Assembly: GCF_003334335.1 (NCBI RefSeq)
Contig: NZ_QOWQ01000068.1
Reading direction: 5' to 3' (one strand)
DNA length: 8,688 nucleotides
Source: Escherichia coli
Lineage (GTDB): Bacteria > Pseudomonadota > Gammaproteobacteria > Enterobacterales > Enterobacteriaceae
Position numbers and translations under genes: made by a program. A model generated the notes under the pieces. The model ran no database searches and had not been told where the DNA came from. It saw only the letters and a list, made by a program, of their open reading frames with translations. Shown piece by piece: positions 159 to 8,553 of this stretch; within the stretch, counting starts at the first letter, position 1; each line of letters opens with the position of its first letter.

Positions 159-283
159 ATTACCGGTTCGCTACCAGGGAAGAACGGGAAGGAAAGGTGA
201 GCACGAATCTGATTTTCAAGGAGTGTCGCCAGAGTGCCGCGATGAAGCGGGTGTTGGCATTTTATCGCGGCAATTTTCAATAG
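159..283 (+). pseudogene. ren: ren C-terminal remnant (lambda Ren-like); no usable N-terminus
   Basis: Frame 2 reads ..YRFATREEREGKVSTNLIFKECRQSAAMKRVLAFYRGNFQ*, which parallels the lambda Ren C-terminus (..YYRFATREEREGKMSTNLVFKECRQSAAMKRVL..). Upstream in the same frame there are stops at 83-85, 107-109 and 143-145, and resemblance to lambda ren starts only at about 159. Confidence 0.7.
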
Positions 284-320
284 ACTATGTACATAAAAAT
301 ATCATTTTTTTAATACATGT

Positions 321-512
321 CTAATTATTGGACGAAATTGGTTTTTGCTTTGGTTTAGTTAGCCTAGCAATCAAGCCAGAGGCAATAATGATGATCCAAG
401 CAATTTGATGCAATGCTACTCCAATATAAGAACCTTTATAGATAATAAAGGCATAGATCGCTAGAAACGAAATAAATATCCATAACGAAAGTTGATAAAT
501 TTTGGCGCGCAT
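321..512 (-). CDS. Small hairpin (2-TM) membrane protein, 63 aa, unknown function
   Basis: The ATG at 512 (MRAKIYQ..) is preferred over the TTG at 527. There are two about 20-residue hydrophobic helices separated by KGSY, and a basic C-tail (RLTKPKQKP). There is a weak GGA upstream. No family recognised; the resemblance to YiaA/YiaB two-helix proteins is only faint. Confidence 0.5.
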   Translation of the reverse strand: MRAKIYQLSLWIFISFLAIYAFIIYKGSYIGVALHQIAWIIIIASGLIARLTKPKQKPISSNN

Positions 513-768
513 ATTTAATCCAATCAATCAGAAAGACGAGTAATCATAGAGGTACTATCACCCGGGTAACTATTGCTATTATGAACGGATAGGATAGAGG
601 CTTCAATAACATATGCATCAAGTATGATGGAATATGTAGGTGAAAATGACTTGTGTCAAATTTGTGGAAATGAGTACCATGTTTCTCTGAAATTGATGTC
701 GTTAATGGCTAGTGATAGTGAACTTTTTTACTTTATAATTCCTTTGGTTATAACAATAAGGTAAATTT

Positions 769-1329
769 ATGAAGAAGATAATATTATTAGCCATGATTAT
801 TGGTTCTTTAACAGGTTGCGCTAGTGTGCCACCATTGAATTTTTCAACACCTAACGTGGGAGTTAGCCAGAAAAAAATAGATGCTGAAATTAAGTCATTA
901 ACGGTATCACTTGCTCGTCCAGATGAGCAGAAAGGGGATATCACTGCTGGTATGGAGGCTATAACTCCAATTTGGCGTGAATCTTTGCAGGAAGCACTCG
1001 ACCGAATGACTATTTTTCGTGATAGTTCACCAAATACGGTTAGCTTAAATGTTAAAGTGTTGGCTCTTGACGTTCCTGCTTTTGGTGTTTCAATGACAAC
1101 TAAAGCAATTGCAAGGTATGAAATAATCAACCGTGCGAATGGTGATATTATATATACGCAGGATATTGAGTCTACCGGTACTGTTCCAGCCAGTTACGCA
1201 TTCTACGGTATTGTTCGAGCACGCGAATCTGTTAATCGCGCGGTGCAAAACAACATAACGCAGTTCTTGCAAGCATTAGAAAGTGTTGATCTTTCTCGTC
1301 CAATGTTTCCTGTTAGGGTAGCTAAATGA
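769..1329 (+). CDS. Orphan outer-membrane lipoprotein, 186 aa
   Basis: The signal peptide carries the lipobox LTG|C17, with Ala at +2. An AAGG lies 8 nt upstream of the ATG. The stop overlaps the next start (ATGA). The mature part looks like a mixed alpha/beta domain. Its architecture loosely recalls YajG-type lipoproteins (tentative, from memory). Confidence 0.8.
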   Translation: MKKIILLAMIIGSLTGCASVPPLNFSTPNVGVSQKKIDAEIKSLTVSLARPDEQKGDITAGMEAITPIWRESLQEALDRMTIFRDSSPNTVSLNVKVLALDVPAFGVSMTTKAIARYEIINRANGDIIYTQDIESTGTVPASYAFYGIVRARESVNRAVQNNITQFLQALESVDLSRPMFPVRVAK

Positions 1330-1778
1330 AGCGATTATTCGTAATTGCTCCACTCTTAGTGTTGGTTGGATGCGCACAAAATATATCGCCAAATAGTTAT
1401 TCTGTTGGCTCTGTGGGCATGGTTAATCGAACTATCGCTGGTACAGTTATTAGTGCTAGGGGGGTTGATATCAGTGGGACTTCCGCGTTAGGCGGGACTG
1501 CTGGGGCTGCCGTGGGGGCAACCGCTGGTTCTGCGCTTGGTGGGGGAGTTCGTTCTAATATCGTTGGTGCCGTTGGTGGTGCAGTCATTGGTGGTATTGC
1601 CGGGGCAGCAATCGAATCTTCAGCAACAAAACAAACAGGCATGGAATATGTTGTCGAAACTGAGAATGGGAATTTAATGACCATTGTTCAAGGCAAAGAT
1701 CCGTTATTTACTCAAGGAAGTAAGGTCCTTGTTTTATACGGAAACCCTTCTCGCATAATAACAGACCCGCGTCACTAA
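1326..1778 (+). CDS. SlyB/Pcp-family glycine-zipper outer-membrane lipoprotein (17-kDa-antigen type), 150 aa
   Basis: Lipobox LVG|C16. A Gly/Ala zipper spans residues about 51-96 (GTSALGGTAGAAVGATAGSALGGG..GAVGGAVIGGIAGAAI). The C-terminal beta segment GMEYVVETENGNLMTIVQGK..KVLVLYGNPSRIITDPR is collinear with E. coli SlyB (..GVELEIRKDDGNTIMVVQKQ..RVVLASNGSQVTVSPR). An AGGG lies 7 nt before the ATG. Confidence 0.85.
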   Translation: MKRLFVIAPLLVLVGCAQNISPNSYSVGSVGMVNRTIAGTVISARGVDISGTSALGGTAGAAVGATAGSALGGGVRSNIVGAVGGAVIGGIAGAAIESSATKQTGMEYVVETENGNLMTIVQGKDPLFTQGSKVLVLYGNPSRIITDPRH

Positions 1779-1818
1779 CATACCTTTTGATTTTGTAAAA
1801 TCAATTCGTAATAATAAA

Positions 1819-4030: not shown

Positions 4031-5113
4031 TTAGAACTGGTAAACCATACCTACAGCAACGATATCATCGGTAGCAACGCCAGATGCTTTCGTGAAATCG
4101 CTCTTATCAATCAGGTTGATTTTGTAATCAACAAAAGTGGACATATTTTTGTTGAAGTAATAGGTTGCACCTACATCAATATATTCAACCAGGTCCTGAT
4201 CACCCCACGCACCCAAGTCTTTTCCTTTAGATTGCAGGTAAGCAACGGACGGACGCAGACCGAAGTCGAACTGATATTGTGCAACTACTTCGAAGTTTTG
4301 TGCTTTGTTGGCAATATGGTTATTACCAAAAACAGTCATGTTCTGGGTTTCAGAATAGGTGGTAGCCAGATAGATGTTGTTCGCATCATATTTCAGACCA
4401 GCTGCCCATACTTCAGCATTTTGACCAGATGCATTCAGGCTGTTGTTACCGTAGATAACCTGATTATTAGTGCGGTCAGATTTAGCATAGGTTGCACCTA
4501 CACCGAATCCTTCATACTCATAAGTAGTGGAGAAACCGAAACCATCACCATTAGCTTCAGTTACGTCAGTGCGGTCATTTTTACCCTGATACTGAGCAGC
4601 AAAGTTCAGACCATCAACCAGACCAAAGAAGTCATTGTTACGATAAGTTGCAACACCTGTGGTGCGACCAGTCATGAATACATCTGTTTGGGTCCAGGTA
4701 TCGCCACCGAATTCTGGCAGAACGTCGGTCCATGCACCAATATCGTATGCTACACCGTAGTTACGGCCATAATCGATGGAGCCGTAGTCACCGAATTTCA
4801 GGCCAGCGAAGGCAAGACGGGTTTTATCTTTGGAGGAACCTTGAGATTCAGCGCGGTTGCCTTTGAATTCATATTCCCACTGACCGAAACCAGTCAGTTG
4901 ATCGTTGATTTGGGTTTCACCTTTGAAGCCAAGACGGGCATAAGTAGTATCACCATCATCTGCATCATTAGAGGAGAAGTAGTGCTTAGCATTAACTTTC
5001 CCGTACAGATCCAGCTTGTTACTGTCTTTATTATAAATTTCAGCTGCCTGAGCAGACATCGCCATCAGTACTGATGCAGCTACAGCAGAAATTGCCACTG
5101 TTAATTTTTTCAT
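4031..5113 (-). CDS. nmpC: OmpC/PhoE-family general porin NmpC (Lc-type), intact, 360 aa precursor
   Basis: The start at 5113 ([23 protein letters not shown]|AEIYNK..) has a signal peptide and an AAGGG SD. The sequence has porin hallmarks (..LDLYGKV.., ..GFGQWEYEF.., C-terminal ..VGMVYQF). The 20 extra N-terminal residues in the track ORF lack a signal-peptide context. Confidence 0.95.
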
Positions 5114-5540
5114 CGTGAGCCCTTTTTTTGAACTATTATTAAAAAATGATGTCACTGCGCGATAAATATTCATCTAATCAATGTGATTATTTCAAGATGT
5201 AAGTTTTGGTTTCTCATTTGATTTGTGAAGTAGATCTCTATTTTTATCTGAACTTTTTCTATCGAATCCTATTCATGGCTCTTGGCTGAATAAAAATAAA
5301 TCTATTAGCCAATTTATATTAATGGCTGTTATTTATAAGTGCTCTATAATTTGAAGATTCAATTTAAACCAGCTAAAAATAACGCTGGAAATTATTTGTT
5401 GGTTATTTGTTGAGATTTGCTTATGTATTTGTAGTGGTGTTTTCAATACTCGGTAGCATTCTCGCAAATATCATTTAGTGGTTTACGTACGTAAAAAATT
5501 GGTTATGCTGTTAAGAGTGGTTACTTCGTCACACAGCTTA

Positions 5541-6902: not shown

Positions 6903-7196
6903 TTATTGTGAGCAATACACACGCGCTTCCAGCGGAGTATAAATGCCTAAAGTAATAAAACCGAGCAATCCATTTACGAATGTTTGCTGGGTTTCTGTTT
7001 TAACAACATTTTCTGCGCCGCCACAAATTTTGGCTGCATCGACAGTTTTCTTCTGCCCAATTCCAGAAACGAAGAAATGATGGGTGATGGTTTCCTTTGG
7101 TGCTACTGCTGCCGGTTTGTTTTGAACAGTAAACGTCTGTTGAGCACATCCTGTAATAAGCAGGGCCAGCGCAGTAGCGAGTAGCATTTTTTTCAT
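6903..7196 (-). CDS. borD: Bor serum-resistance outer-membrane lipoprotein, 97 aa
   Basis: MKKMLLATALALLITG|CAQQTFTVQNK.. has a lipobox and matches remembered lambda Bor/BorD. It sits immediately after Rz on the opposite strand. Confidence 0.95.
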   Translation of the reverse strand: MKKMLLATALALLITGCAQQTFTVQNKPAAVAPKETITHHFFVSGIGQKKTVDAAKICGGAENVVKTETQQTFVNGLLGFITLGIYTPLEARVYCSQ

Positions 7197-7486
7197 GGTG
7201 TTATTCCCGATGCTTTTTGAAGTTCGCAGAATCGTATGTGTAGAAAATTAAACAAACCCTAAACAATGAGTTGAAATTTCATATTGTTAATATTTATTAA
7301 TGTATGTCAGGTGCGATGAATCGTCATTGTATTCCCGGATTAACTATGTCCACAGCCCTGACGGGGAACTTCTCTGCGGGAGTGTCCGGGAATAATTAAA
7401 AACGATGCACACAGGGTTTAGCGCGTACACGTATTGCATTATGCCAACGCCCCGGTGCTGACACGGAAGAAACCGGACGTTATGAT

Positions 7487-7897: not shown

Positions 7898-8182
7898 TGG
7901 TAAAACCTTCCATGTGATACGAGGGCGCGTAGTTTGCATTATCGTTTTTATCGTTTCAATCTGGTCTGACCTCTTTGTGTTTTGTTGATGATTTATGTCA
8001 AATATTAGGAATGTTTTCACTTAATAGTATTGGTTGCGTAACAAAGTGCGGTCCTGCTGGCATTCTGGAGGGAAATACAACCGACAGATGTATGTAAGGC
8101 CAACGTGCTCAAATCTTCATACAGAAAGATTTGAAGTAATATTTTAACCGCTAGATGAAGAGCAAGCGCATGGAGCGACAAA

Positions 8183-8389
8183 ATGAATAAAGAACAATCT
8201 GCTGATGATCCCTCCGTGGATCTGATTCGTGTAAAAAATATGCTTAATAGCACCATTTCTATGAGTTACCCTGATGTTGTAATTGCATGTATAGAACATA
8301 AGGTGTCTCTGGAAGCATTCAGAGCAATTGAGGCAGCGTTGGTGAAGCACGATAATAATATGAAGGATTATTCCCTGGTGGTTGACTGA
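8183..8389 (+). CDS. ybcW: Small lambda right-end protein YbcW, 68 aa
   Basis: [33 protein letters not shown].. matches remembered YbcW and the lambda right-end ORF. Function unknown. Confidence 0.75.
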
Positions 8390-8553
8390 TCACCATAACT
8401 GCTAATCATTCAAACTATTTAGCCTGTGACAGAGCCAACACGCAGTCTGTCACTGTCAGGAAAGTGGTAAAACTGCAACTCAATTACTGCAATGCCCTCG
8501 TAATTAAGTGAATTTACAATATCGTCCTGTTCGGAGGGAAGAACGCGGGATGT

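Follow-up and report, generated by a model that had tools for sequence, protein, structure and literature searches.

SlyB of Escherichia coli (b1641; PDB 7OJF/7OJG) is a PhoPQ-induced lipoprotein that forms rings around outer-membrane proteins and lipid nanodomains, and it has recently become a model for compartmentalization and protection of the Gram-negative outer membrane, with its paralogs (YfgH and the Yersinia copies) only now being separated by function. The title of PDB entry 7ojf describes the protein as encircling BamA and porins. Mutation of I65, V69 and F73 in Yersinia SlyB abolishes phospholipid binding, and polymyxin-induced oligomerization depends on the same residues (bioRxiv 10.64898/2026.06.08.730324). 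YfgH and the Yersinia paralogs illustrate that SlyB-type proteins diversify into non-redundant forms (bioRxiv 10.64898/2025.12.22.696046; 10.64898/2026.06.08.730324). In the F-plasmid protein TraT an LptE-like core and two transmembrane helices build a decameric ring, which functions in surface exclusion and serum resistance (PMC12658005, PMC11733297). Here we analyze a SlyB-like gene in an 8.7-kb window (the whole analyzed stretch of 8,688 nucleotides, from E. coli contig NZ_QOWQ01000068.1), which represents the early-right and lysis region of a DLP12-like lambdoid prophage; its gene content bears out the prophage location that an initial annotation had given to the gene.

What is new relative to existing knowledge is that this gene belongs to an obligate two-lipoprotein operon, which is recurrently carried by temperate phages. 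The resulting cassette is distinguished by its fixed lipoprotein partner, by the loss of the residues that hold phospholipid in SlyB, and by its spread on phages and islands across three proteobacterial classes. None of the names given to its products in the source databases is correct: they comprise 'hypothetical protein', '17 kDa surface antigen', the wrong 'UDP-N-acetylglucosamine acyltransferase' and a putative 'YajG family lipoprotein'.

The SlyB-like protein and its glycine-rich hairpin

The SlyB-like protein is homologous to SlyB over its entire length, at a considerable evolutionary distance, and the resemblance goes beyond what shared composition would produce by chance. BLASTP aligns its residues 1-149 with residues 2-155 of E. 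coli SlyB at 33% identity (E=7e-13), a phmmer search of the PDB recovers SlyB 7ojf with residues 2-149 (E=1.3e-14), hhalign against SlyB gives a probability of 98.8%, and 7ojf_A is the sole significant structure in Foldseek searches (E=3e-9, TM-score 0.5). The three sequence comparisons uphold the earlier placement of the protein in the SlyB family, and its collinearity with SlyB extends from the lipobox through to the PR at the C terminus. Both proteins share the order of lipobox, N-terminal strand, two-helix glycine-zipper hairpin with an arginine in the turn, and C-terminal β-domain, and the ...PR terminus is likewise common to them. A recent copy of host slyB with near-identical flanks is ruled out by the 33% identity in the pairwise alignment, by the absence of slyA/anmK from every SlyB-like locus examined, and by the occurrence of the closest relatives in other genera. 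The genes also differ in their setting: slyB is monocistronic, lies beside slyA and has a PhoP box, whereas the SlyB-like gene comes second in a coupled pair carried by mobile DNA and lacks such a box.

The glycine-rich feature had been assigned to residues 51-96 of the plus-strand open reading frame (ORF), and both its coordinates and its frame proved exact (Table 1). This stretch (GTSALGGTAGAAVGATAGSALGGGVRSNIVGAVGGAVIGGIAGAAI) contains 15 glycines and 12 alanines, amounting to 59% Gly+Ala versus 15% in the remainder of the mature protein. Its G/A-rich G-x3-G pattern is as originally described; it does not, however, form one uninterrupted zipper but two ladders (G56/60/64/68/72 and G81/85/89/93), between which lies a GGGVRSN turn. 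In an AlphaFold2 model residues 55-71 and 75-101 are helical, with a strand before them and the C-terminal β-domain after them. The remark that the raised GC content of the segment merely reflects its Gly/Ala content is accurate, as it is codon positions 1 and 2 that are GC-rich (74%), while GC at the third position (GC3) is a low 39%, compared with 32% for the remainder of the gene and 30% for the partner gene upstream. Matches of the protein to Pfam glycine-zipper models lie under the curated cut-offs (PF05433, 21.1 vs 24.2 bits; PF13488, 16.9 vs 25) and are nonetheless genuine; E. coli SlyB itself scores 31.1 bits with PF05433, and this model is matched by 26 of 30 subfamily members at E<0.01. 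In the PHROG classification the protein falls into PHROG 13877, whose function is unknown.

A lipobox without Asp at position +2 is a known outer-membrane sorting signal, and from their lipoboxes, which lack this Asp, both lipoproteins of the cassette are predicted to reside in the outer membrane. The glycine-rich stretch would then be the helical hairpin by which an outer-membrane lipoprotein of the SlyB type is embedded in the membrane, a proposal that we hold to be about evenly balanced jointly with the rest of the explanation developed below.

The zipper had earlier been taken as conserved and its flanks as diverged. Comparison with SlyB contradicts this, as identity is evenly low along the protein (26% in the N-terminal region, 37% in the zipper and 31% in the C-terminal region), and 16 of the 17 identities in the zipper are Gly or Ala, with only 1 of 19 non-Gly/Ala positions identical. 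Because these non-Gly/Ala zipper positions are as diverged as the flanks, divergence has been even and the protein is best seen as an old paralog. Nor are the flanks free to vary: within the subfamily 8/34 N-terminal and 20/54 C-terminal positions are invariant, compared with 13/46 in the zipper, and the flanks are hence conserved as strongly as the zipper or more. SPxxYSVGSVGxVNR and MEYV..NGNLMT..LYGSPSRII.DPR are conserved segments of the protein. The I65/V69/F73 triad of SlyB helix 1 aligns to T58/A62/T66, such that the hydrophobic triad is absent, and across the subfamily these positions are occupied by T/G/A/S, A(L) and V/T/A. Helix 1 consists of nearly all small residues and is much less hydrophobic than that of SlyB, while helix 2 is more hydrophobic than its SlyB counterpart. 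As the lipid-binding triad has been replaced, the retention of the SlyB ring scaffold, which the initial annotation had expected, cannot be assumed.

A large protein collection contains 581 relatives of the SlyB-like protein, many of them at 63-77% identity and derived from Klebsiella, Edaphovirga, Pantoea, Salmonella, Pusillimonas and Rugosibacter. An exhaustive search returned a continuum of ~2,200 cluster representatives, of which only 17 reach E<=1e-30. Relatives at 55-77% identity are found in chromosomes and islands of Alpha-, Beta- and Gammaproteobacteria; the subfamily is thus not phage-specific, contrary to the expectation that prophage copies might form a clade of their own. Partner-less relatives at 44-49% identity from Limnobaculum, Leminorella and Pragia (L040, L042, L049, L053) share a syntenic chromosomal context of their own, which is not that of slyA/anmK, and therefore constitute a separate group of SlyB-family paralogs. 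In a Janthinobacterium metagenome-assembled genome (L025, 8001-9808) the SlyB-like gene is apparently split, with residues 1-134 encoded at 8001-8405 and the last 17 residues ~1.35 kb downstream, likely as the result of an insertion.

YfgH and the Yersinia SlyB paralogs are likewise outer-membrane lipoproteins with a two-transmembrane glycine zipper. The Yersinia paralogs are 62-67% identical to SlyB, unlike the SlyB-like protein with its 33%, and a YfgH-like identity can be rejected, as YfgH is barely similar (E=0.009). In E. coli K-12 yfgH resembles the cassette in having a second gene, yfgI, on the same strand, 15 nt downstream (L061, 4793-5866); YfgI is, however, unrelated to the partner lipoprotein of the cassette, and a YfgI-like identity of that partner is accordingly rejected. 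YfgH also gives a sub-threshold match to the TraT Pfam model (E=2e-6).

The partner lipoprotein and carriage of the operon

The SlyB-like gene, initially treated as a lone gene, is half of a translationally coupled, co-inherited two-gene operon that is under purifying selection across three proteobacterial classes. A gene for a second lipoprotein directly precedes it on the same strand in 41 of the 50 reference-genome loci with a SlyB-like relative, in 33 of 34 IMG/VR loci, and in all 4 distinct contexts obtained from an exact-protein look-up. The nine partner-less genome loci comprise one contig end, one gene fragment, five relatives at 44-49% identity and two at 56-58%. In the window the TGA of the partner gene overlaps the ATG of the SlyB-like gene (ATGA at 1326-1329), and the same 4-nt stop/start overlap recurs in 29 of 40 genome loci, the gap being <=26 nt in 39 of the 40. 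The distance matrices of the two proteins are correlated (Mantel r=0.71, reached by 0/2000 permutations), and both contain many invariant positions. Nonsynonymous divergence (dN) is 0.11-0.32 in both genes, with synonymous sites (dS) saturated, such that dN/dS ratios are mostly uncomputable; purifying selection on both genes follows from low dN in the face of this saturation. Neither the clustering of every ORF in the flanks nor a Pfam survey of 145 neighbors revealed a third conserved gene, the neighbors being as varied as SecA, ribosomal protein S2, transposases and antitoxins.

The partner matches no Pfam or NCBIfam family (33 members were searched against Pfam) and only a PHROG of unknown function. 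Its predicted structure, with two helices packed on an antiparallel sheet in addition to the lipid anchor, suggests an α+β fold of the LptE/PqiC/PelC type; unlike lipoproteins of the LptE, PqiC (DUF330), PelC and YajG types, it has no LptD, MCE or Pel genes nearby. The partner has 512 homologs, and among those listed with a source name most go by 'UDP-N-acetylglucosamine acyltransferase', a label also used by NCBI and UniRef. We reject this identity given the lipobox, the lack of an acyltransferase domain and the LptE-like fold, and the label looks like a propagated annotation error. Membership in the YajG family is similarly unsupported: none of the 33 members matches PF03923 at E<=1, with E. 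coli YajG scoring 176.8 bits, and hhalign of the partner against E. coli YajG is weak (probability 76%).

In the E. coli prophage the cassette is a moron, as indicated by its site-specific absence in relatives, its deviant composition and a promoter-like signal. In blastn comparisons with the DLP12 prophage of K-12 homology ends at window position 256 and restarts at 1785, and the same slot in K-12 is filled by the 4-kb emrE-ybcM segment (emrE-ylcJ-ybcK-ybcL-ybcM). GC3 is 30-39% in the insert, whereas the phage genes on either side of it have 46-62%. Of 5,426 complete E. coli genomes, 280 (~5%) carry the insert at >=99% identity, in every case on the chromosome, and PLSDB contained no match indicative of plasmid carriage. 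Twelve of the IMG/VR loci are from other phages, at 57-76% identity, each of them with the partner (12/12). The cassette also occurs in an integrase/AlpA island, in an IS66 region and in the nin region of a Salmonella prophage, while most copies in reference genomes are situated not in phages but amid unrelated, often housekeeping, genes. In the Salmonella prophage (L008, 3388-10580) the cassette lies among ParE/PaaA2, PemK/MazE, YoeB/YefM and HigB toxin-antitoxin pairs. The pair resembles the prophage outer-membrane morons Bor, Lom, Cor and Llp in being a low-GC cargo that has a promoter-like site and shares its prophage with Bor and a porin; in sequence and fold it is unrelated to Rex, Bor, Lom and Cor.

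In several unrelated temperate phages the pair adjoins the cI repressor. It is located 43-79 nt downstream of, and co-oriented with, a cI-type repressor combining helix-turn-helix (HTH) and S24 domains in L086-88, L093 and L054, where it thus occupies the place of rexAB in the cI-rexAB layout of lambda. The likeness extends in L093 to a divergent cro-like gene upstream and a strong terminator after the SlyB-like gene, and neither a promoter nor a terminator was detected between cI and the pair in this locus. In L029, L092, L094 and L097 the repressor is convergent with the pair and within 1.4 kb of it.

A hydrophobic ORF on the opposite strand of the insert (Table 1) is annotated in phage PhiR30_1 only, and tblastn matches to it among loci L001-L059 are confined to L001 and L002, both of the E. 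coli type; it does not belong to the conserved pair, and its membership of the cassette is doubtful. Control of the cassette by PhoP or sigma-E was also considered and found wanting, with no convincing upstream site and window-wide matches at chance level.

Table 1. Coordinates of the cassette and of other features in the window
Feature	Position	Strand	Details
SlyB-like lipoprotein, predicted outer-membrane	1326..1778	+	150 aa; lipobox LVGC, Cys16, Ala at +2 (LVGC followed by AQ)
Predicted two-helix glycine-zipper hairpin	1476..1613	+	residues 51-96 of the SlyB-like protein
Zipper helix 1	~1488-1541	+	
Zipper helix 2	~1557-1613	+	
Arg76 in the zipper turn	1551-1553	+	invariant in the subfamily
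Partner lipoprotein	769..1329	+	186 aa; lipobox LTGC, Cys17, Ala at +2
Cargo insert (moron)	257..1784	.	between ren and ylcH/ybcN of the DLP12-like prophage
Sigma-70-like promoter candidate	712..739	+	GTGATA-16-TATAAT; 30 nt upstream of the partner gene; 10/12 consensus positions
Hydrophobic ORF	321..527	-	68 aa; inside the insert; matches no family
nmpC/ompD-type porin gene	4031-5173	-	intact; Porin_1 match, E=4e-153
bor	6903-7196	-	
PhoP-box match	7249-7265	-	~55 nt upstream of bor

Possible functions of the cassette

Taken as a whole, the explanation that we favor has an about even chance of being right: the SlyB-type protein and the lipoprotein encoded upstream of it would constitute a self-contained mobile operon, carried as temperate-phage cargo and having a general barrier or stabilizing role. 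The most likely function would be that of an outer-membrane complex, expressed in the lysogen, which reinforces or shields the envelope. It is conceivable that the SlyB-like protein oligomerizes through its zipper into outer-membrane rings in the fashion of SlyB, and that the partner, with its LptE/PqiC/PelC fold, docks on the conserved N-terminal segment and the C-terminal β-domain. Such docking would yield a two-component ring complex assembled from the building blocks of TraT, split over two chains. The complex, presumably made in the lysogen, might act on universal lipid or LPS (lipopolysaccharide) components rather than on one particular receptor protein, and the lysogen could thereby better withstand envelope stress, antimicrobial peptides or serum, with incoming phages perhaps being excluded as a result. 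A broad function is favored because the proteins remain 55-75% identical between Alpha-, Beta- and Gammaproteobacteria, whose phages and outer-membrane proteins are not the same. If the two proteins do form a complex, SlyB-type rings can be two-component machines, and the cassette would offer a compact, transferable module for testing ring contents; if the module protects lysogens, an outer-membrane function would be added to those of the genes expressed beside phage repressors.

Several observations weigh against this proposal. The AlphaFold2 model of the SlyB-like protein is mediocre (predicted local distance difference test, pLDDT, 69), and contact between the two lipoproteins is something that we infer. 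Given the small or polar residues replacing the triad and the much lower hydrophobicity of helix 1, lipid nanodomains of the SlyB kind may not form. A full-length relative occurs without the partner in seven loci (two at 56-58% and five at 44-49% identity). With regard to expression, the promoter candidate is a consensus match only, and no PhoP box is present upstream of the cassette at 528-768, such that regulation of the SlyB type is absent. Moreover, the E. coli cassette lies within the rightward early operon, at a distance of 3.9 kb from cro, and is not beside cI, and in L087 a weak hairpin intervenes between cI and the pair.

A different possibility, to which we attach a rather low probability, is that the cassette is a dedicated superinfection- or surface-exclusion system, in which, in the manner of TraT, Cor or Llp, a ring hides or captures one particular receptor of the outer membrane or stops DNA from entering, with the lysogen being protected from other phages or from conjugation. 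This model is kept alive by the adjacency of the pair to the repressor: at least seven loci lie directly beside cI, the classic place of exclusion genes such as rexAB, although RexAB acts at the inner membrane. The carriage by temperate phages of several hosts and the presence of the Salmonella prophage copy among toxin-antitoxin pairs point in the same direction, as does the match of the building blocks to those of TraT (PMC12658005), together with the encirclement of BamA and porins announced in the title of PDB 7ojf. The likeness to TraT is, however, one of architecture only (an LptE-like core plus a two-helix membrane hairpin), realized there in one polypeptide and in the cassette in two. 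Homology is rejected at the sequence level, as hhalign probabilities are 3.6% for the SlyB-like protein and 2.5% for the partner, Foldseek E-values (0.12-0.33) are non-significant, and the TraT model PF05818 gives weak sub-threshold matches in only 4 of 30 members. Neither protein matches a PADLOC defense model at E<=1, most reference-genome copies are outside phages, and a protein that tracks a specific receptor would hardly be expected to be so strongly conserved between classes. It is this conservation, along with the many non-phage locations, that leads us to prefer the evenly poised barrier role over receptor masking, which we consider unlikely. The more specific conjecture that the pair is an unrecognized temperate-phage exclusion system, a 'split TraT' of LptE-fold lipoprotein and SlyB-type ring, co-transcribed with cI in several phages and sealing or sequestering the entry sites of the lysogen, is in our estimate also unlikely, by a shade more. 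We found no literature on the RefSeq protein accessions and PHROG numbers of the two proteins, and none that joins glycine zipper, lipoprotein and superinfection exclusion.

That the gene encodes a stand-alone, prophage-specific SlyB paralog, in which the ring scaffold is kept and only the client-binding surfaces have changed, would agree with its collinearity with SlyB and the retained glycine ladder; we nevertheless deem it improbable, as the partner is obligatory, the family is not restricted to prophages, non-Gly/Ala zipper identity is a mere 1/19 and the lipid-binding triad has been lost. Marginally more doubtful still is an export conduit, in which the partner would build a periplasmic ring of the PelC, PqiC or CsgG kind and the helices of the SlyB-like protein would form an α-helical pore letting a lipid or polymer through the outer membrane: the surroundings contain no conserved gene for a transporter, an MCE protein, a synthase or any other partner, and SlyB rings are filled with lipid and protein rather than being open pores (bioRxiv 10.64898/2025.12.22.696046). 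Family resemblance is all that speaks for a recent duplicate of host slyB or for decaying, functionless hitch-hiking cargo. The 33% identity to host SlyB, the intactness of the genes at >=99% identity in 280 genomes, dN far under the saturated dS and an operon architecture kept across classes already refute this last reading, leaving it a negligible probability.

The host prophage

The gene order of the window begins with the 3' end of ren, followed by the two lipoprotein genes, ylcH, ybcN, ninE, ybcO, rusA, ylcG and quuD, and continues through an intact nmpC-type porin gene, essD, rrrD, rzpD/rzoD and bor to ybcV. In one complete genome the same prophage is located at tRNA-Arg (argU) and has a complete lambda-like gene set, and the induced phage PhiR30_1 carries the same region as the window. 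The K-12 DLP12 counterpart of the porin gene is interrupted by IS5. With the porin gene of the window intact, the prophage therefore contains three outer-membrane cargo units, namely the lipoprotein pair, the porin and Bor. Upstream of bor lies a perfect PhoP-box match, TGTTTAGGGTTTGTTTA, which is the sole zero-mismatch site within the window.
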